Of a stretch of 64,000 bases of DNA, positions 12,562 through 54,154 are shown in pieces. This stretch comes from a candidate division WWE3 bacterium (GTDB lineage: Bacteria; Patescibacteriota; WWE3; UBA101185; UBA10185). The stretch is taken from contig WJKK01000001.1 of the NCBI GenBank assembly GCA_014729135.1, forward strand, positions 64,593-128,592. The letters are read 5' to 3'. A model generated the notes under the pieces. That model made no database searches and was not told the origin of the DNA. It saw only the letters and a list, made by a program, of their open reading frames with translations. The position numbers and the translations under genes are program-made. Each line of letters begins with the position of its first letter. The first letter of the stretch is position 1.

Positions 12562-12684
12562 GCTGAGACTCAACAAATTCGGGCGCCAAAACAGTAACAC
12601 CAGAATTAAAAACCGAAAAAGTAGGAAACTAAGAAAACAGGCTGCCAACTACTTTTAGAAACAGGAAAACCACAGCAACAGCCC

Positions 12685-19206: not shown

Positions 19207-19338
19207 TATCCCGGCGACGACCTATCTTCCCAGACACGCGGTCTAGTATTTTCAGCGCTGGTAAGTTTAACTTCTCTGTTCGGAATGGATGTCCCGACAA
19301 GCGGGACGTAGAGGTGGGTCCTTACCGCCATCGTCACC
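19207..19338 (-). rRNA. rrf: 5S rRNA
   Basis: The reverse complement reads ...ccattccgaacagagaagttaaacttaccagcgctgaaaatactagaccgcgtgtctgggaag... with helix I ends ctcggtgacgatggcgg / ggtcgtcgccgg. Boundaries are approximate. Confidence 0.6.
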
Positions 19339-20170
19339 GAGATGATGCTTATAAACTGAGCTCATAACGGATATCCCCTTTCTTGCTCAGGCTTCCCTTC
19401 GGTCAGAATTCGCTCAAAAGGGGATATCCGAAATTCGCTAGGTGTATGAAGGCGAGAAGTGAAATGCTTCCTAACCTAATACACAAAAGTGCTTGTTTTA
19501 CTTTGAACAAGGGGATTCCCTTTTGCACGACATTTCGGAGCAAAGCGACGTCGTGGAGTGCAAAAGCGGAAACACTTGTTCAAATCCAACAAGAACAAGC
19601 ACAAATATTCTATTTTCAAAGAAATCAAGTAGATCAACTGCGCTCAATTGCCTCACAAGTTATTTAACAACTCGTAAGCTAGAAAAGAAGCGCAACATTA
19701 GTACTGCTCGGCTGAGAATTCCTCCAAACGTCATCATTTTTCCTAAGCAAAAGGGCAAGCCCAATTACTTTTGGAAGGCCGATTCAGTAAGAGAAATATC
19801 TACACACCCCTTACGGGGCTTACACCTACAGCCTATCAACCTGGTAGTCTCCCAGGAGTTGCGACCCACTTAAAGTGGGATAGTCCTAATCTTGAGGTGT
19901 GCTTCGTGCTTAGATGCTTTCAGCGCTTATCACGTCCGAACGTAGCTACCCAGCGATGCTCCTGGCGGAACAACTGGTACACTAGAGGTTCGTTCATTCC
20001 GGTCCTCTCGTACTAGGAATGACTCCTCTCAGGACTTTGCGCCTGTTGCGGAAAGGGACCGAGCTGTCTCACGACGCTCTAAACCCAACTAACGCGCCTT
20101 TTTAATGGACGAACAGTCCAACCTTTGGGACCTTCTCCAGCCCCAGGATAAGACGAGTCGACATCGCATG

Positions 20171-21006
20171 TTAATCAATTATTACTAATTGCACTGACTA
20201 TATCTTCTTCCTCATTCCTTTAAACCATCCATTTGTTTAAAGAGATAGGAGTCGGCGTATTATGAAAGTTTAAAATACAACACTTTACTCAAGTCTTCCA
20301 TCTCGCCCGCTTTTACGGGCTCAGTCGATACGGGGTCATAACAAAAGTTTATACTTCATACTCTCTATTATCAGAGGCTCCGTTAAGGTATTAAACCTTT
20401 TAACGCATCTCTTATAAAGGCGTATTCTGAAGTAAATTTTATCCTTATTCAAAGAGCCTTCTAAACCAAGTTCAGTTAGCTTTTTGAGAAGAAAACTCTG
20501 ATCCTCCAGGTCAAATTGTTGAGTATTGAAATAAACAGAATCCCTGTCTTTAGAACCATCATCCATAAACCATACAGCTAAAATCAAAGGATCTAGCTTT
20601 AGGTTTCTAGGAATGGTCTTGTACTCTTTTTGAGAATAATAATCCTCATAGAATACATTCAGTTCAGGCAGACTTCTGGTTGTAAATCTATAAGAAAAAC
20701 GGTTTTTCCCGGATTTTCTTAATTTTGGAGGAGTTAAAACATAAGATTTCAACTTCTCATACAACCAAAAGACATAGTCTTTCTGTTTATTAGAGTGGTT
20801 TATCTCCAAAAGAGTATTTTTTCTCCTTCGTAAAGAACCATCTCCCAACAATTTCCCTGTTATTATGGATTTTTGGACTTTTGTCAGACTTCCCACGGTA
20901 TCATCCATGTACAAAATAATACCACAATGTACATTAGGACTCCACCGTTATTAGCCGAATTTTTGGTACCGAATTACTTCGATAGCACCCCTTTCTATTT
21001 CCTTGT
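20171..21006 (-). mobile_element. Group I intron in 23S domain V, at the E. coli ~U2500 site (GGCACCU|CGAUGUCG)
   Basis: The exon junction reconstructs the conserved GGCACCTCGATGTCG. The upstream exon ends in U and the intron ends in G. It contains a LAGLIDADG ORF and shares 5' and 3' sequence blocks with the 16S intron. Confidence 0.75.
20336..20914 (-). CDS. LAGLIDADG homing endonuclease (single-chain, two motifs) inside the 23S intron
   Basis: Motifs ITGKLLGDGSL and ILAVWFMDDGSKD. N-terminus MYMDDTVGSL is paralogous to the 16S-intron ORF. Confidence 0.8.
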   Translation of the reverse strand: MYMDDTVGSLTKVQKSIITGKLLGDGSLRRRKNTLLEINHSNKQKDYVFWLYEKLKSYVLTPPKLRKSGKNRFSYRFTTRSLPELNVFYEDYYSQKEYKTIPRNLKLDPLILAVWFMDDGSKDRDSVYFNTQQFDLEDQSFLLKKLTELGLEGSLNKDKIYFRIRLYKRCVKRFNTLTEPLIIESMKYKLLL

Positions 21007-21049
21007 AGGTGCCAAACAGTGCCGCCGCTGTGGGCGCTCGGGCACTATT

Positions 21050-21080
<31 letters not shown>

Positions 21081-23140
21081 ATAAGTTCCGGGCCTACCAT
21101 TAGGCACTCGGAAGATCACTAAGACCTACTTTCGTATCTGCGCGATTTGTATATCTTGCAGTCAAGCTCCCATATACCTTTACGCTTACATCCCGATTTC
21201 CATCCGGGACAAGGGAACCTTTGTGCTCCTGCGTTACTCTTTAGCAGGAATCCGCCCCAGATAAACTGCCCTTCAAACATTGTCCTCTCACCCGATAAGG
21301 GCGAACAGTTAGGCTTGCACTAGTGAAAGAGAGGTGTTTCATCGACGTCCTCCAGTCGTTAAACGGGAGAACTCCCTCCTACTCTACACAGTCAATAGCA
21401 CGCACCAATGTCAGAATACAGTAAAGCTCCACGGGGTCTTTCTGTCCAGCAACAGGTAACCGGCATCTTTACCGGTAGTTCAATTTCACCGAGTTCGTGA
21501 CTAAGAGAGTGCTCAAGTCGTTACACCTTTCGTGCGGGTCGATAATTATTCGACAAGGGATTACGCTACCATAGAACAGTTATAGTTACTGCTGCCGTTC
21601 ACCCGAGCTTGAACCGAAAGCTCATTCCACTCCTAAGAGGGGAAATCACCTCCAGTCTTAACTTACAGGCACTGGGCAGGTGTCGGCCCCTATACCTCCT
21701 CTTGCGAGTTTAGCAGAGACCTGTGTTTTTAATAAACAGTCGCTTGAGCCATTTCTGTGCCCCCCACGCAATTAAGCATGGGGCATCCTTTTCCCTAAGT
21801 TACGGATGTAATTTGCCTAGTTCCTCGGCCACGATTCTCTCGTTCGCCTTAGTATTCTCTACTTGTCTACCTGTGTCGGTTTGCGGTACGGATACTAAAA
21901 AACCTCCCTAGAAGCTTTTCCCGGGAGCTTAACGCAACCGGATCACGCCTTTCGACGCTTTTCCCCCGGCTCACGTGAGTCTCCTTGCGGAGACAACGCC
22001 CGTACGGATTTGCCTGTACGGACTAGCTTGCCTTCGGGACTCAAATCCATAATGAGCCCGGCCTATCAAACTCCGTCCCTCCATTGGTAAAAACGGTTTT
22101 TCAGTAGTGCAGGAATATTAACCTGCTGTCCATTAGCTACGCCTTTCGGCCTCACCTTAGGACCGACTAACCCTCCGATGACTGACATTGCGGAGGAACC
22201 CTTAGACTTTCGGCGAGGTGGGTTTTCACCACCTTCTCGTTACTCATGCCAGCATTCTCTCTTGATAACGCTCCAGCAGCCCTCGCGGGTCTACCTTCTG
22301 TGCTACGTTCAAGCTCTTTTGAAGCCGATCCTGATTTACATCAGGATGACATCTTTAAAAGTTTGAATGTTATCAATGCTCCCCTACCTTCTGCCTCCTA
22401 CAAGAGGAGACAAAACCATAGTGTCGGTTCTTTGCTTGAGTCCCGTTAAATTTTCGGCGCAAGGCCGTTTAACTAGTGAGCTGTTACGCTTTCTTTAAAG
22501 GTTTGCTGCTTCTAAGCTAACCTCCTAGCTGTCTAAACAGACTTACTTCCTTTCTCACTAAGCATTCCACACAAGGTGGAACCCCCACAAAAGTGGGGAA
22601 AGATTTGGGACCTTAACTGATGGTCTGGGATGTTTCCCTTTCGCGCTAGGAACTTGCTCCCTAGAACTGACTCCCGGTCAACGGATTTGCGCATTCGGAG
22701 TTTGGTAAGAGTTAGTACGCAAAAGCGCCTAATCTCTTTTCAGTATCTCTACCTCACAAATCCTATAAGACCAAGGCTATACCTACATATATTTCGGGGA
22801 GAACCAGCTATTGCCAAGTTCGATTACCGTTTCAGCCCTAACCACAGGTCATCCGAGCATTTTTCCACATACACCGGTTCGGGCCTCCATCCACCTCTCG
22901 ATGGACTTCACCCTGCCCATGGTTAGATCACTTGGCTTCGGGTCTAATAGCACGTACTTATCGCCCGTTAAGACTTGGTTTCCCTTTGCCTCCACGACTG
23001 AATCGTTTAAGCTTGCACGTGCAATTAACTCGCTGGCTCATTTTTCAATAGGCACAATATCACCCGAACTTATCCGAAGATAAGTGGGCTCTATCAGCTT
23101 GACTGTGTACGGTTTCAGATTCTATTTCACTCCCCTATCC

Positions 23141-23185
<45 letters not shown>

Positions 23186-24262
23186 GTCTTGACGTGTTTA
23201 GCCTTAGCAGATGGTCCTGCTTCCTTCACACGAGGTTACCGTGTCTCGTGTTACTCTGGACAACTCAAGAAGATTCTTTGTTTCGTTTACGGGGCTATTA
23301 CCCTCTTTGGCTCCACTTTCCAGGAAGATTCTCCTACAAAAAATTTTCTAACTTCTTTTGTCTTAAAGACATAGAGTTTCCGAACCGCCAAGCACAAATA
23401 TAATTTGTGCTTGCCTTTGGGCTGATTCCCGTTCGCTCGCCGCTACTAGGGAAATTACTTAATTTAGTTTCCTTTCCTCCGGTTACTAAGATGTTTCAGT
23501 TCACCGAGTTACCTTCTCTTTACCTATACCCCACGAATTGTGAGGTTTTAGTAAAGGATAACTGTATTAAACAGATGGGTTTCCCCATTCGGAGACCCCC
23601 GGCTAATAACGCTTCTTATCAGCTGACCGAGGTTTATCGCAGATTGGCGCGTCCTTCTTCGGCATCAAGACCCAAGGCATCCACCATACACATTGAGTAT
23701 CTTTTCCAGCTTACAAGTTGGCACACAACCTGTAAGACAGTAATAAAGGTATTTCCTTTATTACGAGGAATATCTCCTTTTTGTTTTAAGGCACTCTCAA
23801 AGGGAGCGTCTTACCGCCGCCCTTAACGCCTTCTCAGGAGATATTTCATTCGATGAGGAAACGAGGTCCTCACCACGTTTCCTACAATTGAACATTTGAT
23901 ACTTTTAAAACGTTTGGTTTTACCCTTACGTTTTATCTGTATTGTTGATCTACTTAATTTTCAAAGATCTGTTAAGTTTGCGCGTGTGATTGCTTTTGCG
24001 TTCACATTTGGCAAAGTTAACTTAGCAAACAAAAGTGAGAGCATTCTAGTGCAGACACTTTGTTTATGCTTTTCAAGTTGGCTAAAGCCTAACTTGAACG
24101 GCTTCTGAAAACCTCTCTAAAGAAGTTCTCAAGACTGACAATCTCGAGGAGAGATCGTCAATCTTAAAAACTCCTAGTTAATCGGCTTTAATGAAACGTT
24201 TTGAGCCGAGAGGCATTGTATCATATGGTTTTTCAATGTAAATGACCCAAAAAGTTCCGCGA

Positions 24263-24335
24263 AATTTCAAAATACTCAATCCGCCTTCGGCGGATTTCGG
24301 GCATAAGCAAATCTTCCAGATTTGCTTAAGCGCAT
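24263..24335 (-). other. Two hairpins 3' of tRNA-Ala, before the 23S 5' end; possible processing or termination structures
   Basis: Near-palindrome gcataagcaaatcttccagatttgcttaagc (24301-24333) and aatccgccttcggcggatt (24278-24296) with a weak T-run on the minus strand. A copy of the first palindrome also lies 5' of tRNA-Ile at 27886-27918. Confidence 0.35.
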
Positions 24336-24357
24336 TAAAGTGCCTTTGGCACTTTAA

Positions 24358-24434
24358 TGGTGGACTCGGCGGGAATCGAACCCGCGACCTCCGCCATGCA
24401 AAGACGATGCTCTAGCCAACTGAGCTACGAGCCC
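24358..24434 (-). tRNA. tRNA-Ala (anticodon UGC), CCA encoded
   Basis: The reverse complement gggctcgtagctcagttggctagagcatcgtctttgcatggcggaggtcgcgggttcgattcccgccgagtccacca folds as a cloverleaf. Anticodon loop cuUUGCAug. Confidence 0.85.
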
Positions 24435-24478
24435 AAAAACCTGCCTCCGGCAGTTTTTGGGTCCAAGCAAACGTCAAA

Positions 24479-24520
24479 GACGTTTGTTTGCTACCTAAAA
24501 GGTTACAAAGTAACCTTTTA
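24479..24520. repeat. 42-bp direct repeat, copy 1, containing a perfect hairpin aaaaggttac-aaa-gtaacctttt
   Basis: gacgtttgtttgctacctaaaaggttacaaagtaacctttta. Second copy at 24711-24753. Confidence 0.6.
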
Positions 24521-24710
24521 CCCGAGAACCACCTACGGAAGCTCAAGGACTTAACAAAACGCCTTGCGTTTTGTTATGCCCAAAAATTTCAAAGAAATTT
24601 TTGGGGCCAGGTAAATGCGATTGAACAGGAGCATTTAGCTGGACCGTAAAACTTCTATGAAGTTTTACAAGGCATCCGAAAAAAGCTCAAGAGAGCTTTT
24701 ACGCAAAAAA

Positions 24711-24753
24711 GACGTTTGTTTGCTACCTAAAAGGTTACGAAGTAACCCTTTAA
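24711..24753. repeat. 42-bp direct repeat, copy 2 (2-3 mismatches)
   Basis: gacgtttgtttgctacctaaaaggttacgaagtaaccctttaa. Confidence 0.6.
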
Positions 24754-24883
24754 TCCTGCACAAAGTACAAATAAAGCAACTCCAAATATTAAATTAAAAA
24801 CCGGGATATCAGAGCCTCTTTTTTAAAGAGGATTAATTCCATTCCTAGTGAATCCATCAATGAATCCACGCAACAATAAGTTA

Positions 24884-26113
24884 TCATTCAAACAGGCGCA
24901 TGTCAACACTTTTAAGCAAATTCTTCAGACCATTTAACCCCTTCGAATGTTCCCCCGCTTCAGAAACAACCTCCTCATACATTTCAAGCGTCTGACTTGC
25001 AACATTAGACCAATCCATATGGGAAACCTTCTCCTTAGCTGCCAAACACAGCGCCTGATAATCCTCCTGGGGCAAACTTGCCAACTCCTTTAACTTAGCA
25101 GCAAAATCCTTGGGAGCCGTTTCCAAAGGAAAGTTATAACCCACCGAAACATCCACAAACTCATTAGTAGTTTCATTTTCCAAAGACACAATAGGCGTAC
25201 CCGAAGCCAAAGCCTCCAAAACCGACAAACTCTGAACCTCCTTTAGTGAAGCGGACACAAAGAAATGAGACTCTTCAAGCATTTTAGGTATCTTCTTATG
25301 AGGTACTTTACCTACAAAACTAACTAAAACCTCTGCTTTTTCAACTTTATTCTTCAGAAGTTCATCATAACCATCATTCAATGGAACCCCTATTAGATTG
25401 AGCTCAAACTCCTTTTTGGGTAAATGTTTCATAGCATCTATTAAATACGCCTGATTCTTGCGCTTGTTAAGGTAACCAACAAAAATCAGCTTTTTTGGAG
25501 TTGCTGTAATGTCCGCGCAAGACAAGTCTGCGTAATTTTCGAGGTTTCGCCCGTTAGGTATCGTATAAACAGGCGTTTCTAAGTCGTAAGTTTCCAAGTC
25601 TTTTAAAACGGAGTCGTTTATGGCGATGATTGCAGAGGACTTCTTTAGAAACAGGTCAAAGTAACTGTCAAAAACTTTAGAGTCAAAAAGCGATTGCATC
25701 TTTGGAAAGAGCTCTGCTAAACCAAAAGTCACAACCTCTGAGGGAATTGTGTGAGAGGTGAAAACCGTAGGTGTCTTATTTTTTAGTGCCCACAAAAGAG
25801 AAACAAAAGCTGCAGGACCTTGATCATGAAAGTGGATTATGTCGGGAGAAAAGTCACGCAAAACTTTAAGGAGGGAGTTGATTTTTACAGGGTCCAGAAG
25901 CGGTAAAATGACGTCTTGCTTTTTTCTACCGGAAATCTCAAATTGAGTAAAGGTTTTTGTCGTTTTTGTTTTCCCAGTTTCTTCTCCGGAGAGGATTAAA
26001 AGGATATTGTTTTCGGAGGGCGTTTTTGACAAAACTTCTGCAAGCTCCCGGGCTACACGGCCATCCCCTCCTGAGCTATTTGCTGATGCACTGGAAACAA
26101 AAGCGATATTCAT
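24884..26113 (-). CDS. Glycosyltransferase family 4 (GT-B fold)
   Basis: The C-terminal E-x7-E region (EAEVLVSFVGKVPHKKIPKMLEESHFFVSASLKEVQSLSVLEALASGTPIV) is typical of GT4. Confidence 0.75.
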   Translation of the reverse strand: MNIAFVSSASANSSGGDGRVARELAEVLSKTPSENNILLILSGEETGKTKTTKTFTQFEISGRKKQDVILPLLDPVKINSLLKVLRDFSPDIIHFHDQGPAAFVSLLWALKNKTPTVFTSHTIPSEVVTFGLAELFPKMQSLFDSKVFDSYFDLFLKKSSAIIAINDSVLKDLETYDLETPVYTIPNGRNLENYADLSCADITATPKKLIFVGYLNKRKNQAYLIDAMKHLPKKEFELNLIGVPLNDGYDELLKNKVEKAEVLVSFVGKVPHKKIPKMLEESHFFVSASLKEVQSLSVLEALASGTPIVSLENETTNEFVDVSVGYNFPLETAPKDFAAKLKELASLPQEDYQALCLAAKEKVSHMDWSNVASQTLEMYEEVVSEAGEHSKGLNGLKNLLKSVDMRLFE

Positions 26114-26140
26114 GGCAGTTTGAATTCTAGCACACCCGAA

Positions 26141-26325
26141 AAGGGACAGTCCTCTAAGGGGACAGTCCTTTTTAAAACCTACTCTGAAATTCTAGTCTAA
26201 ATAGAAGGGGCTTTAAAAGAGAAACTCTATCGCAAAAGTCAAAAATCAACTTCCTTAACTTCCGAAACTTCTAGTTTAACTAGAATTACTAAAGAGGACA
26301 GTCCTTTAAGAGGACTGTCCCTTCC
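26141..26325. mobile_element. MITE-like composite palindromic element (module A-B' ... B-A) in the GT4 / relA divergent intergenic region
   Basis: Left end aaagggacagtcctctaaggggacagtcc...attctagtctaaatagaa. Right end cttctagtttaactagaattactaaagaggacagtcctttaagaggactgtccc. The ends are imperfect inverted copies of each other (~60 bp). Confidence 0.45.
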
Positions 26326-26354
26326 AGACAAAGCTGCGGTATAATAAGGGCACC

Positions 26355-27770
26355 ATGTCCCTCCCCCAAGCCAAAAAACTGGCAGAAAAAATCTACAAAA
26401 ACAAAACCCGCTTATCCGGGGAAACCTACTACGAACATGCTCTAGAAATCGCGAACCGCCTAAAAAAGTATGGAATCCAGGAAGAAATCACTCTAATAAC
26501 AGCAATCCTCCATCACGCCCTCGACGAGAAAAAAACAACAGCCCAATCCGAAATTGCAGAAATCAGCAAAGAAGCTGCAGACCTTCTAGAGAAATACAAG
26601 CGCCTCACAAAAACCGACATAAAAACAGAATCCCTTACCACTTATAACGAGCGCTACATAATGCAAACTTTTGTAAATCTGGTGGAAGACATTCGAGTCC
26701 TTATAATTAGAGCCGTAGATAAATTGCATGCCCTGGAAAATTCCTGGGCCTTGGAAAAGGAGAAACGTGAGGAGGCTGCTCAAAGAGCCCTTTACCTTTA
26801 TGCCCCCCTTGCAAAAATCCTGGGAGTATCGAAAATTTCAAAAGACCTGGAGGATACAGCGTTTAAAATCCTATACCCGGACAAATACTTTAAAATCAAA
26901 AAAAGTGTACAGAAGCGTTCTTGGGGTACTAAAAAGATTTTTAGGGAGGTGGAAAAGTTTTTAAAGGAGATTCTAGCGGAACAGGGTATTGAGAACTTTA
27001 AGATTCAATATCGGGTTAAAAGTGCTTATAGTTTGCATCGAAAGGTAGAGCGCTACAAAAAGGAAGGTAAGGCGCTGGGCGAGGATTTGAGTAAGATTTA
27101 TGATCTTTTTGCACTTCGTCTCGTTCTTAATACAGTGGAAGAGTGTTACCTAACAGAAAACCTCCTGGCACAACTTTGGGAGGAAATTCCAAACGAACGG
27201 GATGACTACATTAAAAATCCCCGAAGCACAGGTTACCAATCAATCCATAATGCCTTTCAAATTGACAACGACTTCATTGCGGAAGTGCAAATTCGAACGC
27301 ATGAAATGCATCAACAAGCGGAGTTTGGCATTAGTTCGCATCTTTTGTATAAGATTGGGGATAAAGGGGCAAAGTCAAAGGCCGTAGATAAATTCAAAAA
27401 GTACCTCCAAAAACATCCGGAATGGTTTAAGGATTTGAACTTCTGGGAGATTGCGCCGGATAAAAAGTATATACCTAAAACTCCCTTTAGTGACAATATT
27501 TACACGTTTACACCAAAGGGGGATATTATTGAGCTGCCTAAGGGGGCTTCAGTTGTAGATTTTGCCTATAAGGTGCATACGGAGGTGGGCAATAATTGTG
27601 CGGGAGCCTTTGTTAATGGGAAAATTGTTAAGTTGGATCATGTTTTGAGGACGGGGGATACGGTGAAGATTAAGGTGGATAAGCGTAAGCGGCGTCCAAG
27701 TAAGGATTGGCTGGAGTTTGTGGAGACGCGGGCAGCGAAGATTCATATTAATCGTGCCTGGCGGGAGTGA
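26355..27770 (+). CDS. relA: RelA/SpoT-family (p)ppGpp synthetase: degenerate HD, synthetase and TGS domains, no ACT domain
   Basis: HD region ETYYEHALEIANRL...ILHHALDEK (canonical LHD replaced by LHH). Synthetase motifs YSLHRKVE, DLFALRLVL, YQSIHNAF, EVQIRTHEMHQQAEFG. TGS IYTFTPKGDIIELPKGASVVDFAYKVHTEVG. Confidence 0.85.
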   Translation: MSLPQAKKLAEKIYKNKTRLSGETYYEHALEIANRLKKYGIQEEITLITAILHHALDEKKTTAQSEIAEISKEAADLLEKYKRLTKTDIKTESLTTYNERYIMQTFVNLVEDIRVLIIRAVDKLHALENSWALEKEKREEAAQRALYLYAPLAKILGVSKISKDLEDTAFKILYPDKYFKIKKSVQKRSWGTKKIFREVEKFLKEILAEQGIENFKIQYRVKSAYSLHRKVERYKKEGKALGEDLSKIYDLFALRLVLNTVEECYLTENLLAQLWEEIPNERDDYIKNPRSTGYQSIHNAFQIDNDFIAEVQIRTHEMHQQAEFGISSHLLYKIGDKGAKSKAVDKFKKYLQKHPEWFKDLNFWEIAPDKKYIPKTPFSDNIYTFTPKGDIIELPKGASVVDFAYKVHTEVGNNCAGAFVNGKIVKLDHVLRTGDTVKIKVDKRKRRPSKDWLEFVETRAAKIHINRAWRE

Positions 27771-27787
27771 TAGCTATTCAAAGTATT

Positions 27788-27864
27788 TATGGTGGGCGTT
27801 CATGGACTCGAACCATGGGCCTCTCCCTTATCAGAGGAGTGCTCTTACCATCTGAGCTAAACGC
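27788..27864 (-). tRNA. tRNA-Ile (anticodon GAU), CCA encoded
   Basis: The reverse complement gggcgtttagctcagatggtaagagcactcctctgataagggagaggcccatggttcgagtccatgaacgcccacca. Anticodon loop cuGAUaa. Begins 18 nt after the relA stop on the opposite strand. Confidence 0.85.
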
Positions 27865-27871
27865 CCTTGAA

Positions 27872-27892
27872 ATACTCGCCTACGGCGAGTTT
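27872..27892 (+). terminator. Putative intrinsic terminator for relA, located antisense and just beyond tRNA-Ile
   Basis: ctcgcc-tac-ggcgag followed by tttt. Confidence 0.4.
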
Positions 27893-27980
27893 TCAAGCTT
27901 AAGCAAATCTGAAAGATTTGCTTATGCCGTGCAAGTCCGAAGGACTTGTACGATAAGCCTTTGTAAACAAATTTTTTTGG

Positions 27981-28018
27981 TGATCAAAATGTGAGCGTAC
28001 TAACGCGAGCATTTTGAC
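27981..28018. repeat. 38-bp repeat R1 (hairpin caaaatgYgagcg-tactaa-cgcgagcattttg), upstream (5') of tRNA-Ile
   Basis: tgatcaaaatgtgagcgtactaacgcgagcattttgac. A near-identical copy R2 sits 5' of the 16S. Confidence 0.6.
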
Positions 28019-28652
28019 CTCCCTAACAAGTTCTGTAAGAACTTGTTAGTACTGTTGAAATTTCAAGCGTGCCCTGGATGGACACAACCCAACCAAAGCT
28101 CGCCTATAATAGCACAAACAAACTCCACACCCAACCACTAAAACTGCTAAAATAACTCCATGAACCCTGCCACAAACAAAACCCTCCAGAAAATACTAAT
28201 CCCACTTCTTATAGCAACCATCCTAAGCATCAACAAAATCCTAAATATACAAAGCGCTCAGCAAGTCATGCGCGTTTTTGTGAGAATTTTTGTAATTACG
28301 TCTGTGATTTTTGTTGGAATTAAGCTAGTCCCGCAAATTTTTAACCATATTGTTAACGATTAAAAAGAAAAAACGACAGCCCCTTCAGAGTTAACTTCCC
28401 TCTTCCGGGGCTTTAGTCTATTCATCTTCCTCCTCCATAAATTCGACTAAAAATTCCTCGAGGGTCATTGAACACGAATTCCCCGAAGAACGATCTTTGC
28501 CAAAAATTCCCCACAGAAAAAGCAAGAGCAAAGCACCAAACAACAACCACTCATCCATCAGAAACCTCCTTTGAAAGTTGCAAAAATACCACCAACCTGC
28601 CAAGTATACTAAAACAACAAACCAAATTTTAAAAACAAAACAAATAAGAATA

Positions 28653-28684
28653 AAACAAAAAAAGCCTACCATTACGGTAGGCTT
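28653..28684 (-). terminator. Intrinsic terminator ~300 nt downstream of the 16S 3' end
   Basis: Minus-strand hairpin aagcctacc-gtaat-ggtaggctt followed by a 7-nt T-run (plus-strand aaaaaaa before the stem). Confidence 0.5.
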
Positions 28685-29422
28685 AATTTAAAAATCACTT
28701 ATATTTGCTTCAACTTCTCTCTAAACTCAAAATTCAAGAAACCAAAGGCAAAAAGAATGCTCATCTACGAGTTTTGTTATGTGTGAATATTCACCACACA
28801 ACGGCTCACTCGAAACCTTCCCAAAGCTGCTTGTGAGTTACACAGCTCTACTGACTACACGATTTAGGGATTATCACATGTAGTAGGTGTTTCTTCTTTT
28901 GAAGGGCTTTTTTGTAAGTTCATACAAAAAAGATTCCTGCAATCAAAAACACTTGTTACTCCTTAGAAAGGAGGTGATCCAGCCGCAGATTCCCCTACGG
29001 CTACCTTGTTACGACTTCACCCTCATTACTGATTTCACCATGGGACCCCTTAAAAGAGGTACTTCAGGTGACCTCAGCTTTGCTGATGTGACGGGCAGTG
29101 TGTGCAAGACCCGAGAACGTATTCACCGTCGTTTTGCTGACCGACGATTACTAGCGATTCCAACTTCATGAAGTCGAATTGCAGACTTCAATCCGAACTG
29201 AGATGCGCTTTAGGGATTAGCTTTACCTTACGGTATCGCGATACTCTCTGTACGCACCATTGTAGCATGCTTCTAGCCCCAGTCATAAGGGCAATACCGA
29301 CTTGACGTCGTCCCCGCCTTCCTCCATCTTACGATGGCAGTTCCGCTAGAGTGATACAACTAGCAGTAAGGGTTGCGCTCGTTAACCCACTTAAGGGTAC
29401 GCCTCACGGTACGAGCTGACGA

Positions 29423-30294
29423 CCATGTGTAATTCCATTGTTTCCAATGGCACTGACTATATCATCATCCCAATTTTTGCATTGGGAGATCGGCGTGTTA
29501 TGAAAGCGTTTATCCCCACTCATGATTATGTGAGGTAACTTCCATCTCTCCTATAAAAGGATCAGTCGATACGGGGTCATTGTAGTTTTCCGGAAATAGA
29601 ATACTTCCCGATGCCTTCTAGAAACTTAGATAGGGTACTTTTTGAAAAGTACAAACAATAAGTTCCGGCAGCAGAATATCTATATACGGATGTATTTATT
29701 CCTGTGAGTAGGGATCGATCAAGGGATAATTCCGTTGAATCGCCATAAACAATTCTACAGAAAGTTCCCTCCGGAGATATTGAACCATCTCCATCAAATC
29801 TACCCGCAAAATAGGGATAAATACATTCCTTTGCAAGATGTTTCCTATTGGAAAGAGAATATAGGAATTCTCTAACTAAAGGCCTTGAATTAACATAAAC
29901 GTGATAGGCCATTGAAACATTTTTCGAACACTTGCAAAAAGACTTTTTAAATCCTTCGAAACGCTTTGGAATCTCATTACCGTAAATACGGACTCTAACT
30001 CTCTCTTTAGGAAACCTTTCTAAAAGGAAATCTAAAGATCTATAGAGTAAGGTAAGATTCGTATTACTTAGTCCTATGCTGCTGGTTCGTAAATAACGAT
30101 CAGCACCCCAAAGACCAAGAATATAAGCATCTTCTGGATTTGTAAGTAAACTACCAAGACTTCCCACGGTATTGTCCATACACTTATATTAGCATAAGAT
30201 GTATTAGGATTTCACCGTTATTAGCCGATTTTTTCGATAGCGATTACTCGCTAAAGGGCCATCGTTGACGCAGGCCTAAGCCTGCTTTGTGCAT
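29423..30294 (-). mobile_element. Group I intron in 16S between GCAUGGCU and GUCGUCAGCUCG (E. coli ~1059/1060), carrying a LAGLIDADG ORF
   Basis: The exon junction reconstructs ...acaggtgttgcatggct|gtcgtcagctcgtaccg. The upstream exon ends in U and the intron ends in G. Shares cagtcgatacggggtcat and gatatagtcagtgc blocks with the 23S intron. Confidence 0.7.
29577..30179 (-). CDS. LAGLIDADG homing endonuclease inside the 16S intron
   Basis: MDNTVGSLGSLL N-terminus, motif 1 AYILGLWGADRYL, motif 2 YPYFAGRFDGDGSIS. Confidence 0.75.
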   Translation of the reverse strand: MDNTVGSLGSLLTNPEDAYILGLWGADRYLRTSSIGLSNTNLTLLYRSLDFLLERFPKERVRVRIYGNEIPKRFEGFKKSFCKCSKNVSMAYHVYVNSRPLVREFLYSLSNRKHLAKECIYPYFAGRFDGDGSISPEGTFCRIVYGDSTELSLDRSLLTGINTSVYRYSAAGTYCLYFSKSTLSKFLEGIGKYSISGKLQ

Positions 30295-30578
30295 AGCCAT
30301 GCAACACCTGTGTATGCTTCCTAATAAATTAAGATCGGGCACCTTTCGGATTCCTACTACAAACATGTCAAGACTGGGTGAGGTTCTTGGGTTAGCAACC
30401 AATTAAAGAGCATGCTCCACCGCTTGTGCGGGTCCCCGCCAATTCCTTTGAGTTTCAGCCTTGCGACAATACTCCCCAGGCGGCCTGCTTAACGCGTTAG
30501 CTTCGACGCTCAGTCTTAAGACCAAGTATCTAGCAGGCATAGTTTACGGCTAGGAATACAAGGGTATCTACATATTGT

Positions 30579-30886
30579 TACTATGGTTGGATTGATTACC
30601 AACTCCTCATATCGCTATGAGGATCGGACTATATCATTATCTCAACGAATTGAGATATTTGGCGTATAGTCTCTGAGGATTTCCATACTAAAGTGTCCCT
30701 TACTATGGATCTTTCCTGCTGATTGTCTGCACCGGAAGCATTTTTAGGCATTATGAATATTATAGTAATTGTTGTTACCTAATTCAATACCTAGCCCCGG
30801 ATACTCAGATGTTCCAGCATATAGCCAAATTTTAACTCTATAAGGTCGCCCTAATAGAGGGACCGATACCTTGTTGATCCTTTTCT
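30579..30886 (-). mobile_element. ORF-less ~300-nt insertion in 16S near E. coli ~770-785; putative small intron
   Basis: The exon sequence ...gacgaaagctaggggag is followed by non-rRNA sequence until ...tagatacccttgtattcctagccgtaaac resumes. Shares motifs (ttggcgtatagtctctgagg, ccagcatatagccaaatttt) with the insertion at 31150-31512. Boundaries are approximate. Confidence 0.5.
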
Positions 30887-31149
30887 CTCCCCTAGCTTTC
30901 GTCTCTCAGCGTCAGCACAGCCCCAGACAGTTGGCTTCCCCCTTGGTGTTCCTCGTGATATCAACGCATTTCACTGCTTCACCACGAATTCCACTGTCCC
31001 CTAGCTGGCTCTAGTAATACAGTATTGAAAGCAGTCTCTCGGTTGGGCCGAAAGATTTAACCTCCAACTTATATTACCGCCTACAGAACTCTTTACGCCC
31101 AGTAAATCCGGATAATGCTTGCACCCTACGTTTGACCGCTGCTGCTGGC

Positions 31150-31512
31150 TTCTGCTATAGGTTAACCCCCATACTGCAGCTTGTGAGTTATTAATTAACT
31201 CGCCTTGGACTATCTCTTCATCCTCATTCACCTTGGTTAAGGGAAAAAAGGAGTTTGGCGTATAGTCTCTGAGGGCTTTCTCATCATTAGTACAAAAACA
31301 AAATAATATTGCGTACTAAATTAGAGGTTGCCTGCTGATTGTATTGCAATCCATAAGTGGAGCGCGGTTCGCCCCTTTTCGAATTTCCAAAGGATTGTCA
31401 CTGGAGTTTAACTCCGAGTACCTTTGTATTAACAATAGTTTCCAGCATATAGCCAAATTTTCTTATCTAGTGTTACCACTAGAACTACGCACCTGGTCTT
31501 CTTTCAGACCTT
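31150..31512 (-). mobile_element. ORF-less 363-nt insertion in 16S that splits the 515F primer site (ggctaactacgt | gccagcagcagcgg); putative small intron
   Basis: Both exon halves are seen in the sequence. The insertion begins with an inverted repeat aactacgtaaggtctgaaagaagaccaggtgcgtagtt (P1-like). Related to the 30579-30886 element. Confidence 0.55.
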
Positions 31513-32140
31513 ACGTAGTTAGCCGGTGCTTTTTAACGTGAGTTTACAACCCGAAGGCATTCATCCTCCACGCGGCGTCGCTGCGTCAGACTTTCGTCCA
31601 TTGCGCAAGATTCCCGATTGCTGCCTCCCGTAGGAGTGAGGCCCGTGTCTCAGTGCCCCTCTGCCGGTACATCCTCTCAGATCCGGTACCCGTCATAGCC
31701 TTGGTGAGCTTTTACCTCACCAACAAGCTGATAGGCCACAGGCTCGTCCCTAACCGATAAATCTTTGGAGTTTCCTCCACATCGGGTATTAGTTCACCTT
31801 TCGGTGAATTATTCCCGAGTTAGGGGTAGATTCCTATGTATTACTCAGCCGTTCGCCACTAACTATTTAAGGTGTCTACCCGAAGGTAGACGATATAAAT
31901 AGTCCGTTCGACTTGCATACCTTAGGCACGCCGCTAGCATTAATCCTGAACCAGGATCAAATTCTCAAAAAAACATTCTTTTTGCCTTCAGTCCCTCGAA
32001 TAAAATTTCAAGAAACTTAAAGACAAGCGATTTTTAGCTCTATTTAGGTTTTCAATGTGCAAAATAACTAAGTCCAGTTGAAATTAGATATAAACTAATT
32101 CTAAGTAGGAATTATTTAAGCTCGTGAAAACCTAAATAGT

Positions 32141-34363: not shown

Positions 34364-35677
34364 CTACTCTATCTTTTCGATTTCAATTTTTTTCGTTTTA
34401 AAAAGCAGGCTCAAATTCTCATACAGCCTTTCCGGCTTGGCCACAGGCTCACAAGTCACCAAAACCACATGCACAGCATTCAACTCCGGCCAAGTATGCA
34501 CCGTTAAACTGGAAGTGGACAGCGTGTAATTAAACGTATAGCCTCCACGAGAAAAACGAGTAATATCTGTATCCACCACTTTAAGCCTGTGGTAGTCACA
34601 AAACTTGCCTAAAATCTTTTGTAGACGGTTTTTTGACGATAAAAGCGGCTCCGGAACGTCATAAAGCTTAAACGTAAAGTGCTCTACAAAGGGAAAATCT
34701 GCTGAATGAGGCTCTTGATAAGTGTAAATATTAGTAATTTTCTTTTTTAAAGGCTGATGTGTTGAGGAAAGCGTCTCCAGCAGATAGAGTGAACTGGCAC
34801 TTCCAATAGACTCTGCACCATGATAACGAGCAAAACGATTAATCTTTTCTTTTATCAGCAAATTGTACTTTGCAATAAGTTCCTGAATTTGGAAAGTCTT
34901 TTCAGGCGTTTTAAAACTGTTGCCATAGTAAAGGTAAATATGCTTTCCGGAATTTGGCCCCAAAAATTGCAAAGCCCACTCTAAAAACAACTTAATTCCT
35001 GCGGTAGTATAAGGAGGATCCGTAACTACAACATCAAAACGTCCTCTTAGTTCGGGGCGCAATTCATTTCTGGCATCATAAAGCTCTGTGCGAATGTTTT
35101 CAAAACCCTGCTCTTCCACAATGGAGTTAATCGTATCCAAGATATCCTGGTCAATATCAAAAACCGTAATTTGCGTATACGGAGTTTCAGCTAATCCCAT
35201 AACCACCGACAATAAGTCGTCCTCTCCCAACAGGGCGATTCGCTTACCTTCCAGATCGCCTCTAGCCTCCATGATTTTCACCTTTGCCACCGAAGTATTA
35301 ACCGTAGCAAAAAATTGGTCATACTCTCTTTTTGGAGCTAAATCATGCGCTTTTCGAATTTCCATGAGACGATCCTCTAGGTCAGGATCAGCAAATTCCA
35401 CGAGCGACCAAGCGTATGGTTTTGGAGCCAGTTCTTCAATTTCAGAGGTATATTCCAGTTTAAATAGAATTTCGTCCCCTTCCGGCTCTTGTAAAAGTGT
35501 GGAAATAGTGGATTTGAACCTGCGAAGCGTCTCCTTTGGAAGGCCTGTTTTTCTTATTAGAGAGGCGTTAGTCATTCCCGGATTTTTTAAAATCAGGTAC
35601 AAGATTCCCTCAATTTGAGGTTTTGAAAGACCTTTGTTTTGTTTCTGAATCTCTGTTATTGAGAGCACGGCTGACAT
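34364..35677 (-). CDS. Putative bifunctional polyamine-synthesis protein: N-terminal wHTH + DPPY-motif Rossmann domain (BpsA/DUF43-like aminopropyltransferase candidate) fused to a C-terminal SpeH-like S-adenosylmethionine decarboxylase
   Basis: N-terminal FDVVVTDPPYT within a Rossmann-like region. C-terminal ...HGAESIGSASS... and SLTVHTWPELNAVHVVLVTC resemble prokaryotic AdoMetDC (the E-S self-cleavage site and the HTWPE motif). Confidence 0.5.
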   Translation of the reverse strand: MSAVLSITEIQKQNKGLSKPQIEGILYLILKNPGMTNASLIRKTGLPKETLRRFKSTISTLLQEPEGDEILFKLEYTSEIEELAPKPYAWSLVEFADPDLEDRLMEIRKAHDLAPKREYDQFFATVNTSVAKVKIMEARGDLEGKRIALLGEDDLLSVVMGLAETPYTQITVFDIDQDILDTINSIVEEQGFENIRTELYDARNELRPELRGRFDVVVTDPPYTTAGIKLFLEWALQFLGPNSGKHIYLYYGNSFKTPEKTFQIQELIAKYNLLIKEKINRFARYHGAESIGSASSLYLLETLSSTHQPLKKKITNIYTYQEPHSADFPFVEHFTFKLYDVPEPLLSSKNRLQKILGKFCDYHRLKVVDTDITRFSRGGYTFNYTLSTSSLTVHTWPELNAVHVVLVTCEPVAKPERLYENLSLLFKTKKIEIEKIE

Positions 35678-39314: not shown

Positions 39315-39944
39315 GTGTCTCATCTAAAACTCCATGTAAGAATAGTAAAATTTGCGCTCAAACAAATGGAACAAAACGGTTATACAAACATGCCAAAAAA
39401 AAGAATCTTATTCTTCACCAAAATCCTATCACCGGACTTGGCGCATATGCATAAAAATTTCGGGGGTGAAAACTGGTACAAACGCTTCAGTCACATGAAT
39501 ACAAAAACAATTAAAGGCTCAATTAAAAAAGCGAAAAGAGAGCATAAACTCCTAAGAAAAAATCTAAAGAACCAAAGGGGAACAGCTAAAAATTTGGCAT
39601 GGGTAGCTCATTACATAGTGGATTCCTTGGAACCAATGCATTTGATTGATTGGAAAAGAAAAATAAAACCAAAACAATTTAGGAGACATTTCTACATAGA
39701 AAACCAAACGAAAAATATAGAAATTAGAGCAAGCGAAAACACGGAGCCGGAGAATGAAAAAAGCCTGGAAAAACTATTAGAGAGGGAAAGCTCTAAAATC
39801 AGAAGTAGAAATCTGGAGAATCTTTATCCAGATGGAATGAGCGAAATCTTAGAAATCTACAAAGAGGAAATCATACCTCTGCAGCTAAAAATCACTCTCC
39901 AAACCTGGAAAGAAGCTCTCTTAAAACCCCGGGCTAAACAATAG
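39315..39944 (+). CDS. Basic hypothetical protein with a zinc-PLC / S1-P1-nuclease-like H-Y-x3-D-x3-P-x-H motif
   Basis: VAHYIVDSLEPMHLID resembles the PROSITE zinc-dependent phospholipase C site (H-Y-x-[GT]-D-...-P-x-H). There is no signal peptide, so the assignment is weak. Confidence 0.4.
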   Translation: MSHLKLHVRIVKFALKQMEQNGYTNMPKKRILFFTKILSPDLAHMHKNFGGENWYKRFSHMNTKTIKGSIKKAKREHKLLRKNLKNQRGTAKNLAWVAHYIVDSLEPMHLIDWKRKIKPKQFRRHFYIENQTKNIEIRASENTEPENEKSLEKLLERESSKIRSRNLENLYPDGMSEILEIYKEEIIPLQLKITLQTWKEALLKPRAKQ

Positions 39945-40464
39945 AAGTAACCTCAGAGGCCCTCTTTAGGCTATCCTCTGCAAGACCTAAACCACACTCA
40001 CCCACCGCTTGCTCCATACGGGCACCAATTTCTTGAATAATATCCAAAGCCTCCTCATAAGAAAGGCGTCGAAAATTATGCGGAAAATAATGAAAAACAC
40101 GATTCCTACCGCGATGCCATGTCTCCCATAGCTCATCAGCTAAATCCACTTTTTTAGTTTCTTTCAAACACATCCGTCCAAATTGACGTGAATGCGACTT
40201 CCTATATCTAGGACTTAAAATACGGCCCACACGAATTTCATCTCCATAAAAGTCCTCCTCGTTAATCACATCCATGTCCAAAAAGAGCTTTTTCAAAAAG
40301 CCCTCATAAGCTTTTGCGAAAGGAAAAACTAAATAAGAAAAATCAGAAACTTTTTGATCTCTTTCAGGGGGTAAATCCAGGAGGCTTTCACCATCACTAA
40401 TTAAACCCTGAATATCTCCTTCCATGTAAGCCCAAACTGCTGATTTTTTATTTATTATTTCCAT
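39934..40464 (-). CDS. Hypothetical protein with a HEPN-like R-N-x3-H motif
   Basis: WHRGRNRVFHYF contains RNxxxH in a predicted helical protein. Convergent with, and overlapping by 11 nt, the PLC-like gene. Confidence 0.4.
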   Translation of the reverse strand: MEIINKKSAVWAYMEGDIQGLISDGESLLDLPPERDQKVSDFSYLVFPFAKAYEGFLKKLFLDMDVINEEDFYGDEIRVGRILSPRYRKSHSRQFGRMCLKETKKVDLADELWETWHRGRNRVFHYFPHNFRRLSYEEALDIIQEIGARMEQAVGECGLGLAEDSLKRASEVTSIV

Positions 40465-53527: not shown

Positions 53528-54154
53528 ATGCCCAAATCCAAAAAAATAAAAAATAAAATCAAAAAAATCGCCTTCCTTGGAGGCTCCTCCTGGAAAAAAG
53601 AAGACAAACCCTATAAGGACGCCTACAAAACCGCCAGACTCCTTGCTGAAAACGGCTATGAAATTGTTAATGGAGGGGGTCCCGGAATCATGCGGGCAGC
53701 AACACGAGGCGGTAAGGCTGGCGGAGGAGAAGTTTTAGCTATTACATATCACCCCAATAAAAAGAAGAAAAACTATGAAGGGATCGATTCGGGGAACAAC
53801 TTTGACGAGGAAATTATTACTTTAGACTATTTTGATCGCACAAAAGTGATGCTGCAGAATTCTGATGTGCATATTGTTTTTAACGGGAGCACGGGAACAA
53901 TTAGCGAATTTGGTATGACGTGGGCAAGTTCGCGCATTCATGAGGGAAATCATAAGCCTATTGTTTTGTTTGGAGCTTTTTGGGAAGAAATTTTAGAGGT
54001 TATCCGCAAAAATATGTTGATGCGCCCGGGTGAGGTGGAGTTACTGAAGGTCTGCACTAAACCGGAGGAGGTTTTGGAGTTTGTGGAGAGTGTGGAAGGT
54101 AAATCAACTGACCCACCGGAAAAGAATAAGGAACAGATTAACTCCTTAACATAA
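53528..54154 (+). CDS. LOG-family protein (TIGR00730 Rossmann fold; lysine decarboxylase-like)
   Basis: IAFLGGSS...GYEIVNGGGPGIMRAATRGGKAGGGEVLAI. Confidence 0.8.
   Translation: MPKSKKIKNKIKKIAFLGGSSWKKEDKPYKDAYKTARLLAENGYEIVNGGGPGIMRAATRGGKAGGGEVLAITYHPNKKKKNYEGIDSGNNFDEEIITLDYFDRTKVMLQNSDVHIVFNGSTGTISEFGMTWASSRIHEGNHKPIVLFGAFWEEILEVIRKNMLMRPGEVELLKVCTKPEEVLEFVESVEGKSTDPPEKNKEQINSLT

Follow-up and report, generated by a model that had tools for sequence, protein, structure and literature searches.

Which reaction would be catalyzed by a polypeptide that joins a relative of N4-bis(aminopropyl)spermidine synthase (BpsA) to a pyruvoyl-type S-adenosylmethionine decarboxylase (AdoMetDC), and which acceptor would it serve? 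The question is raised by one gene of a candidate division WWE3 bacterium (contig WJKK01000001.1), which lies in a 64,000-nucleotide stretch of DNA that was analyzed as a whole and is called the window below. A sequence-only reading of the window had proposed such a fusion, consisting of a BpsA/DUF43-like transferase with a DPPY motif and a pyruvoyl-type AdoMetDC. Re-translation returned the open reading frame (ORF) as claimed, on the minus strand with an ATG start and 437 codons, and Pfam, PDB sequence searches, a family profile and fold comparison agreed on the two parts. An NCBI protein that is 100% identical to the 437-amino-acid ORF is named 'putative methyltransferase' (candidate division WWE3 bacterium).

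34364-35677, minus strand: whole gene, fusion of a BpsA-like transferase and an AdoMetDC, 437 amino acids (ORF list; ATG start, stop codon at 34364-34366)

The BpsA_C and AdoMet_dc domains occur in one copy each in the window, both in this gene, and the protein has two folded modules, a transferase (residues 1-319) and a decarboxylase (residues 333-437). Decarboxylated S-adenosylmethionine (dcSAM), the product of AdoMetDC, is the aminopropyl donor. Since AdoMetDC makes dcSAM, and since the partner is homologous to a dcSAM-dependent aminopropyltransferase and keeps the Asp pair that positions dcSAM, we read the protein as a bifunctional enzyme. It would convert S-adenosylmethionine (SAM) to dcSAM by means of a pyruvoyl group derived from Ser389 and would then transfer the aminopropyl group to an amine, with release of methylthioadenosine (MTA). 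We give this reading a probability of about 0.65.

The transferase module

The BpsA_C domain (PF01861) was matched by residues 101-308 with an E-value of 1e-39 and a score of 136.7 bits (cut-off 27), which together with the AdoMet_dc match described below places both expected Pfam domains far over their cut-offs. The BpsA structures 5xnc and 2qm3 were found by PDB sequence search at ~7e-23, and the family profile reached BpsA at 1e-36. An AlphaFold2 model was built with 39 relatives and had a mean predicted local distance difference test score (pLDDT) of 88.5. Its first ~320 residues matched BpsA of T. kodakarensis, P. furiosus and T. thermophilus in Foldseek (E 2e-23 to 6e-18), with 5xnc at 2e-23 over ~350 columns. 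A SpeE-family domain was not matched anywhere in the fusion protein by Pfam.

35393-35677, minus strand: winged-helix-like N-domain, residues ~1-95, homologous to the N-domain of BpsA (weak HTH_24 match, profile, model)
35525-35548, minus strand: TGLPKETL, residues 44-51, conserved motif of the N-domain with Lys48 and Glu49 invariant in the 39-sequence alignment
34721-35377, minus strand: Rossmann catalytic domain, residues 101-319, ending at the conserved IYT (residues 317-319) (PF01861, PDB profile, Foldseek)
35216-35227, minus strand: GEDD, residues 151-154, equivalent to BpsA GDDD (T. kodakarensis Gly157-Asp160) and predicted to bind the aminopropyl group of dcSAM (alignment to 5xnc)
35006-35038, minus strand: FDVVVTDPPYT, residues 214-224 (re-translation)
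35006-35020, minus strand: DPPYT, motif IV, residues 220-224, with Asp220 equivalent to Asp225 of T. kodakarensis BpsA (alignment)
34802-34819, minus strand: GAESIG, residues 287-292, clade-specific transferase motif just after Tyr285 (alignment)
34790-34816, minus strand: AESIGSASS, residues 288-296, inside the transferase module (re-translation)
34682-34720, minus strand: flexible linker, residues 320-332, YQEPHSADFPFVE (pLDDT below 50 at residues 321-328)

The two-domain plan of BpsA, a winged helix followed by a Rossmann domain, was recovered: profile positions 16-287 align with residues 41-314 of 2qm3, and the profile alignment starts at position 16 with 2qm3 and at position 63 with 5xnc. 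The winged-helix-like start that had been read from the sequence is borne out by this alignment to the BpsA N-domain, by a weak Pfam match to HTH_24 at residues 24-53 and by the helices of the model (residues 7-13, 19-31, 37-44 and 48-57). Likewise, FDVVVTDPPYT was confirmed to lie in a Rossmann context, inside the PF01861 domain.

Conservation was followed in an alignment of 39 homologues and in 55 fused and 22 unfused proteins from GTDB species genomes. The GEDD loop occupies the position of methyltransferase motif I (GxGxG). It is a singleton variant of GDDD, which is present in 55 of 55 other fused proteins and in 20 of the 22 unfused ones; G151, D153 and D154 are invariant among fused relatives. 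In BpsA, Asp159 and Asp160 of GDDD are essential for positioning the aminopropyl group of dcSAM (review PMC12979288). That dcSAM and not SAM is the substrate of this module is best argued, at the sequence level, from the acidic GDDD loop in place of the glycine-rich SAM motif. Both Asp220 and Tyr285, the equivalents of Asp225 and Tyr290 of T. kodakarensis BpsA, are conserved. Motif IV reads DPPYT in all 77 CPR (Candidate Phyla Radiation) proteins, as opposed to DPPET or DPPDT in six canonical BpsA sequences.

Directly after Tyr285, GAESIG stands in place of an insert of ~18 residues that carries Tyr316 in canonical BpsA. It was found in 22 of 22 unfused BpsA-like proteins, which have no decarboxylase domain, and exactly in 39 of the 55 fused ones. 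AESIGSASS, which the sequence-only reading had taken as one of two SpeH-like signatures, is thus a transferase feature; the other signature, SLTVHTWPELNAVHVVLVTC, does belong to the decarboxylase (residues 390-409).

The Rossmann domain closes with IYT, which aligns with the LY(N/D) that precedes the acidic carrier tail DEE(A/S)STT of BpsA. Within the 10 positions after IYT, 82% of the fused proteins have at least 3 acidic residues and the window protein has 2, while the unfused BpsA-like proteins end 1-5 residues past IYT and have no acidic cluster. In unfused genomes, the stop of the first gene and the start of the second overlap at the position of the linker.

In summary of its relation to BpsA (EC 2.5.1.128; T. 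kodakarensis and T. thermophilus, PDB 5xnc and 6j27; P. furiosus, 2qm3), the window protein shares with it PF01861, the two-domain plan, the GDDD loop, the motif IV Asp, the Tyr and an (I/L)Y tail motif. The two are not orthologous. Mean identity is only ~25% and the clade is separate; DPPY replaces DPPE, the CxxC insert of the canonical N-domain and the Tyr316 insert are both missing, and Glu259 is replaced. The acidic carrier tail has given way to the linker and AdoMetDC, and is absent in unfused relatives. Furthermore, DPPY-type modules are not strongly acidic, and their hosts are mesophiles, not thermophiles, as opposed to the single-domain canonical proteins of ~350 amino acids from thermophiles.

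The decarboxylase module

The AdoMet_dc domain (PF02675) was matched by residues 333-436 with an E-value of 3.4e-17 and 63.2 bits (cut-off 25). The AdoMetDC of T. maritima was found by PDB sequence search at 5e-06, by alignment search at 9e-07 (1tlu/1vr7) and by the family profile at 5e-10. In the model the last ~107 residues matched the same enzyme (1vr7) with a TM-score of 0.80 and a root-mean-square deviation of 2.0 Å over 107 columns in Foldseek, so that structure prediction supported both halves of the proposed fusion. The only NCBIfam match to the domain was the AdoMetDC equivalog TIGR03330, at 49.5-53.6 bits and therefore under its cut-off of 75.65.

34367-34681, minus strand: class 1b AdoMetDC-like (SpeH/SpeD) domain, residues 333-437 (PF02675, fold)
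34511-34513, minus strand: Ser389, predicted pyruvoyl precursor, aligned with T. maritima Ser63 and invariant in 39 of 39 and 55 of 55 relatives
34451-34510, minus strand: SLTVHTWPELNAVHVVLVTC, residues 390-409 (re-translation)
34484-34498, minus strand: HTWPE, residues 394-398, with His394 (T. maritima His68) and Glu398 (T. maritima Glu72) (alignment; 53 of 55 fused proteins)
34451-34453, minus strand: Cys409 (T. maritima Cys83), conserved catalytic/processing cysteine (alignment; invariant among 39)

The predicted processing site, between Thr388 and Ser389, lies in LSTSSLTVHTWPE. Cleavage there would yield a beta chain of 44.5 kDa (residues 1-388) and an alpha chain of 5.6 kDa (residues 389-437), as computed from the sequence. 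The serine whose loss would have spoken against a pyruvoyl enzyme is present and invariant in relatives. Phe49 and Ser55 of T. maritima correspond to Phe375 and Thr381; Phe49 and the Glu72 of HTWPE are residues that we take to bind AdoMet. Phe375 is invariant among the 39 homologues and was found in 55 of 55 fused proteins, as was the equivalent of Cys409 (in the form TC, SC, IC or VC). The set of Gly, Ser, His and Cys residues shown in Fig. S5 of PMC10407285 is represented by G379, S389, H394 and C409, all invariant in the 39-sequence alignment.

Compared with class 1b AdoMetDC (T. maritima 1tlu/1vr7, B. subtilis type, TIGR03330), the domain has the same fold and the same length (~105 residues) and conserves the equivalents of Ser63, His68, Glu72, Cys83 and Phe49. 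It differs in its place at the C-terminus of a transferase, in its score below the equivalog cut-off and in the Thr-Ser-Ser context of the cleavage site. Pyruvoyl domains of the SpeD fold are also known in fusions in CPR and uncultured phyla, namely as SpeD1-SpeD2 (AdoMetDC-ornithine decarboxylase, ODC) proteins and neofunctionalized SpeD (PMC10407285). In ODC-type homologues HTWPE is lost and GHFAN is found instead (PMC10407285, Fig. S5). The window domain, on the contrary, keeps HTWPE and lacks both the signature ETSL.SGHFAN and the 5-residue insert before the processing strand, having STSSLTVHTWPE there; its partner is a transferase and not a second decarboxylase. A hidden Markov model (HMM) of CPR SpeH scored 48-63 bits on four characterized AdoMetDC domains and 5-14 bits on two characterized ODC-type domains.

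Coupling of the two modules in other genomes

A first database search gave 214 clusters, and among the best 120 of these almost all proteins were ~435 amino acids long, had both Pfam domains and were 43-74% identical to the window protein. A phmmer search of 1.84 billion representatives returned 1446 relatives at E<=1e-3, 764 at E<=1e-10 and 94 at E<=1e-30. The species genomes of GTDB were scanned as well and gave 80 loci, nearly all titled Patescibacteria, with a few third-party annotation (TPA) records labelled Gammaproteobacteria, Nevskiaceae or 'bacterium'. The lineages represented were WWE3, Woese-, Ames-, Shapiro-, Roizman-, Chisholm-, Blackburn-, Nealson- and Nomurabacteria and Paceibacterota. 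Relatives of the fusion protein were not found in a scan of viral contigs.

Fused ORFs of 419-466 amino acids were present in 56 of the 80 loci and an unfused BpsA-like ORF (~317-330 amino acids) in 22; the fusion is thus carried by at least 56 species of Patescibacteria. At most unfused loci the BpsA-like gene is followed by a separate SpeH-like gene for 113-132 amino acids. The two genes overlap by 8-29 nt, and the second has the canonical LS(E/Q)SHL.IHTWPE...TC motifs. In the surroundings of 20 unfused loci, no conserved neighbor besides the BpsA-like/SpeH-like pair was detected. The pairwise identity of the fused proteins is only 33-84%, and nevertheless G151, D153, D154, D220-PPYT224, Y285, F375, S389, H394-TWPE398 and C409 are invariant or nearly so. 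To judge from this alignment, the catalytic residues are under purifying selection.

More distant proteins of 436-516 amino acids with BpsA_C and AdoMet_dc were found in Enterococcus, Xenorhabdus (nine members), Vagococcus fluvialis (109 members) and Erysipelothrix, and the same architecture occurs in the archaeal Heimdall-, Loki- and Odinarchaeota. All these fusions outside CPR carry the NCBI name 'adenosylmethionine decarboxylase', and their C-domains pass the TIGR03330 cut-off with 90-120 bits. The fusion is old, recurrent and not specific to CPR. Given its presence in large genomes (Xenorhabdus, Enterococcus, Asgard archaea), the earlier suggestion of a compact pathway suited to a reduced genome is not supported.

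In a neighbor-joining tree of the transferase modules (200 bootstraps), all DPPY-type proteins were split from canonical BpsA in 200 of 200 replicates. Groups were formed by CPR (179/200), Asgard archaea (188/200) and Bacillota with Xenorhabdus (192/200). Within CPR, a fused clade (171-200/200) was distinct from an unfused clade (91-186/200). The joint rooting of these two clades was weak, and an attempt to read the direction of change in CPR, fusion or fission, from the tree was therefore dropped. Because the physical coupling is recurrent, as a fusion in each of three clades and as overlapping genes in a fourth, both activities probably belong to one pathway.

Several genomes depart from the common arrangement. 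The WWE3 metagenome-assembled genome RIFOXYD1_FULL_39_9 (MEWG01; L017, L067) has both a fused gene, 49% identical to the window protein, and an unfused pair (36%), which suggests that its two modules are paralogues with different acceptor residues (Phe or Asp at the position of Glu259). Two near-identical unfused copies are present in the complete Woesebacteria genome Ch104a (CP055308; L064, L075). Six unfused BpsA-like genes (L066, L070, L072, L074, L078, L082) have no SpeH-like gene within the fetched locus, and L062 and L068 have SpeH-like gene fragments only. The central Asp of GDDD is lost in L070 (GDGD) and L082 (GDND). A link between loss of SpeH and a degenerate GDDD was considered and dropped, as 2 of 6 loci without a partner compared with 0 of 16 with one is no more than suggestive (~p = 0.065, calculated by hand).

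Other partners were also seen. In CPR-type proteins of 550-614 amino acids (P0285, P0295, P0337, P0343, P0354, P0358, P0365, P0369; locus L086, 8001-9788) a BpsA-like module with GDDD, DPPYT, GAESIG and IYT is followed by a ~270-residue KsgA/Dim1-like fold that replaces AdoMetDC. The best PDB match of this partner was 1zq9 at 3e-5; its motif I (GSGIG) is intact and the catalytic NLPY is degenerate (YLPT). In P0337 the GDDD loop is degenerate as well (GDYD). In Vagococcus fluvialis (L085, 10001-11796) a gene for a 144-residue GNAT acetyltransferase lies 24 nt downstream of the BpsA_C-AdoMet_dc gene, and in a metagenomic protein of 549 amino acids (P0352) a BpsA-like module is fused to GNAT through a zinc-ribbon-like linker. 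Gene and fusion point to acetylation of the aminopropylated product. In Xenorhabdus kozodoii (L084, 10001-21235) the fusion gene adjoins a natural-product-like cluster on the opposite strand, with a fatty-acid desaturase, a saccharopine-dehydrogenase-like protein, a 1481-residue polyketide synthase (KS-AT-KR-PP) and an AMP-binding/PP-binding protein; the Xenorhabdus fusion may supply aminopropyl groups to a polyamine-containing metabolite.

Proposed reaction and alternative explanations

From the two domain identities and folds, the conserved catalytic residues and the recurrent coupling of the genes, we infer the following course of events. The C-terminal SpeH-like domain would cleave itself between Thr388 and Ser389, turning Ser389 into the pyruvoyl cofactor, and the alpha chain of 49 residues would remain bound to the 44.5-kDa remainder. 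The domain would then decarboxylate SAM to dcSAM, which the BpsA-family module would bind at its acidic GEDD/GDDD loop, where methyltransferases have GxGxG. The aminopropyl group would be moved to an amine held in the pocket of DPPY and Tyr285, and MTA would be released. The fusion would hold producer and consumer of dcSAM in proximity and at a fixed 1:1 ratio, an arrangement that could allow channelling. The BpsA family works by a ping-pong mechanism and not by direct SN2, and its acceptor site is made of Asp225, Glu259, Tyr290 and Tyr316 (review PMC12979288). As acceptor, the window protein most probably uses a free di- or polyamine. Scavenged diamines, triamines or agmatine are possible candidates, and so is spermidine, as for BpsA; a small amine is hinted at by the Vagococcus GNAT gene and the BpsA_C-GNAT fusion, and an amino group of a macromolecule is less likely.

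Several observations weigh against this bifunctional reading. The decarboxylase domains of CPR, fused and unfused, score only ~50-71 bits on TIGR03330 (unfused partners 49.5-70.8), below the cut-off, and Ser389 stands in Thr-Ser-Ser and its equivalents in the fused clade mostly in Asn-Ser-Asn, where Glu-Ser-His is canonical. In the transferase, the acceptor residue Glu259 of BpsA is Phe in fused and Asp in unfused proteins, the CPR module is without the Tyr316 insert, and unfused relatives have no acidic carrier cluster, to which the fused linker offers no more than a loose parallel. In charge, DPPY-type modules range from near-neutral to basic, as opposed to the strongly acidic canonical BpsA (median isoelectric point (pI) 5.0, net charge -13.5). 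Pfam scans of ~47 ORFs across the 64-kb window revealed no genes for diamine or polyamine synthesis or import, and none for SAM synthetase or MTA salvage. Finally, the literature searches found no measured activity for any member of the DPPY-type subfamily. Module charge was also considered as a discriminator between polyamine and nucleic-acid acceptors and was dropped, since the window protein itself has an acidic transferase module (pI 5.4) and thermophily is a confounding factor.

A reading close to the known enzyme would make the protein a true N4-bis(aminopropyl)spermidine synthase, like BpsA of Thermococcus and Thermus, with a built-in supply of dcSAM, and CPR cells would then produce branched polyamines. 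BpsA is indeed the closest characterized homologue, relatives are named 'bis-aminopropyl spermidine synthase family protein' in databases, the equivalents of GDDD, Asp225 and Tyr290 are conserved, and at the place of the BpsA carrier cluster an acidic stretch follows IYT in most fused proteins. We consider it unlikely nevertheless, given the identity of ~25% to canonical BpsA, the separate clade (200/200 bootstrap), DPPY in place of DPPE, Phe or Asp at Glu259, the missing Tyr316 insert, the unfused relatives without an acidic tail, and a 64-kb window in which no spermidine source was seen. 'BpsA-like' should accordingly not be read as making branched-chain polyamines. It is less probable still that the transferase aminopropylates a macromolecule, for instance at N6 of an rRNA or tRNA adenine or at a protein amide or amine. 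DPPY is motif IV of N6-adenine and N5-glutamine methyltransferases, METTL5 was matched by the family profile (4e-07) and by fold (TM-score 0.74), sister CPR-type modules are fused to a KsgA/Dim1-like rRNA adenine dimethylase fold, DPPY-type modules are non-acidic compared with BpsA, and the winged-helix N-domain has conserved basic residues. On the other hand, we know of no nucleotide or protein residue that is aminopropylated in this way; winged-helix N-domains also serve for dimerization in small-molecule methyltransferases (DnrK-type Foldseek matches), the KsgA-like partner has a degenerate catalytic motif and occurs in fusions without AdoMetDC, the GNAT partners fit small amines, and the module of the window protein is itself acidic. 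The boldest form of this idea, in which DPPY-type enzymes are not polyamine synthases at all and carry out an unprecedented macromolecular aminopropyl modification, with the fused AdoMetDC as a private donor pool, seems to us very doubtful.

An equally doubtful proposal is that the C-domain is a neofunctionalized SpeD, decarboxylating L-arginine or L-ornithine and supplying agmatine or putrescine instead of dcSAM. In its favor, CPR genomes do contain such SpeD homologues (PMC10407285), and the CPR domain scores under the equivalog cut-off and has an altered Glu-Ser-His context. However, HTWPE and Phe375 are retained, where the ODC type has GHFAN and the insert, the CPR HMM separates AdoMetDCs (48-63 bits) from ODC-type domains (5-14 bits), relatives of the same architecture pass the equivalog cut-off, and a dcSAM-dependent partner without a source of dcSAM would make little sense. 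The arginine decarboxylase subtype (SpeDA) is excluded less firmly than the ODC type, the HMM references being AdoMetDC and ODC-type only. That the N-module is an ordinary SAM-dependent methyltransferase, as in its NCBI name, and the fusion unrelated to aminopropyl transfer, is highly improbable. The module does have a class I Rossmann fold with a DPPY motif, and shares motif IV (DPPYT, residues 220-224) with the (D/N)PPY amino-methyltransferases. Weak Pfam matches to N6-adenineMlase, MTS, Cons_hypoth95 and others were obtained, but all methyltransferase matches stayed under their gathering scores (N6-adenineMlase 18.9 against 23.2, MTS 13.2 against 23, Eco57I 16.1 against 25.3, UPF0020 13.3 against 22.3), compared with 136.7 bits for PF01861, and PrmC and related NCBIfam models scored far under their cut-offs on the fusion protein. 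In the position of the glycine-rich motif I the module has the acidic GDDD loop that is typical of BpsA, and the persistent coupling to AdoMetDC in three clades would be left unexplained. A DNA or RNA N6-adenine methyltransferase, which the sequence-only reading had named as the outcome that would overturn it, is likewise not indicated by these scores, and Pfam detected no target-recognition domain in the N-module. We give hardly any credence to a catalytically dead AdoMetDC-like domain that acts in oligomerization only, like the N-terminal domain of animal spermine synthase. The human spermine synthase sets a precedent (PMC12803844), and the domain is diverged and below the equivalog cut-off. 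Yet across 55 species Ser389 and Phe375 do not vary and His394, Glu398 and Cys409 hardly vary, which would be unexpected for a purely structural remnant, and a separate SpeH-like gene with the canonical motifs S(E/Q)SH...HTWPE...TC persists in unfused relatives.

Relation to known fusions

Fusions of AdoMetDC and an aminopropyltransferase, which place producer and consumer of dcSAM in one polypeptide as here, are found for example in Ca. Pelagibacter, a delta-proteobacterium and Krumholzibacteria (AdoMetDC-SpmSyn), and animal spermine synthase is their descendant. In the known bacterial fusions both domains are functional (PMC11107197, PMC12803844). These proteins start with AdoMetDC and continue with a transferase of the SpeE family, whereas the window protein has its transferase first, and this transferase belongs to the BpsA family (PF01861). 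The bifunctional reading would therefore add a fusion in which the transferase comes from another family and the two domains have swapped places. A description of a BpsA-family/AdoMetDC fusion, of DPPY-type BpsA homologues or of polyamine synthesis in WWE3 was not found in the literature, in which subscription journals were thinly covered, so that a prior description is possible. The fusion is visible in public databases under automatic names; its sequence is not new, and the enzyme type is uncharacterized.

CPR bacteria have almost no biosynthesis. A conserved, self-contained module with SAM as input and an aminopropylated amine as output would therefore say what these biosynthesis-poor cells still make themselves, and predicts that the amine acceptor is scavenged. 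BpsA has been described as phylogenetically confined to thermophiles in a 2026 review. The window gene belongs to a large sister subfamily of BpsA, with hundreds of cluster representatives in mesophilic CPR, Bacillota, Xenorhabdus and Asgard archaea, and AdoMetDC is the habitual partner of this DPPY-type subfamily, whether fused or encoded by an overlapping gene. The occurrence of the subfamily in mesophiles and its tie to AdoMetDC suggest that aminopropyl transfer of the BpsA type is much wider than branched-polyamine chemistry alone would indicate. Cultured carriers (Vagococcus fluvialis, Xenorhabdus and Erysipelothrix) make the function directly testable.

Genomic context

The fusion gene is flanked by a divergent gene for an M23 peptidase and a downstream gene for a Na+/H+ exchanger. 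In WWE3 relatives the upstream synteny is retained (M23 peptidase, MnmA, Fpg, GT4 and rRNA operon) and the exchanger is not, and no polyamine gene adjoins the fusion gene. Conserved neighbors were rejected as a clue to the acceptor, because the WWE3 surroundings are merely syntenic and the exchanger is not conserved. An ORF at 53528-54154 that matches PF03641 ('Possible lysine decarboxylase') and SLOG cluster4 was considered as a polyamine or cadaverine gene and rejected; it is of the LOG/SLOG type and the Pfam name is misleading.

An rRNA operon with greatly expanded genes occupies positions 19209-31972 of the minus strand. The 16S gene spans 3.0 kb and contains two group I introns (30605-30877 and 31184-31522) and a LAGLIDADG_3 ORF (29577-30179). 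The 23S gene spans 3.9 kb with a LAGLIDADG_2 homing-endonuclease ORF at 20336-20914, and the 5S gene is located at 19209-19341. Group I introns and large insertions encoding LAGLIDADG endonucleases are typical of the rRNA operons of CPR/Patescibacteria. Unusually for an rRNA operon, the 16S-23S spacer is interrupted by two protein genes, which lie between tRNA-Ile (27790-27866) and tRNA-Ala (24358-24434): a RelA/SpoT-type (p)ppGpp synthetase/hydrolase on the plus strand (26355-27770) and a GT4 glycosyltransferase on the minus strand (24884-26113).

A cluster of the toxin-antitoxin or defence type at 7538-13791 comprises two AAA_14/DUF4143 ATPases (7538-8743 and 10166-11308), an AbiEii/AbiEi pair (8844-10132), a PIN protein (12154-12561) and a PIN-TRAM protein (12685-13791). 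A weakly matching HEPN (RNase LS-like) protein at 39934-40464 was counted with these genes. Near the start of the window, an ORF for 1195 amino acids (116-3703) had no Pfam match. A G+C spike at 4001-6000 (0.54 compared with ~0.42) lies over the ORF at 4751-5647 and small neighboring ORFs, likewise without a Pfam match, and this region may be foreign DNA.

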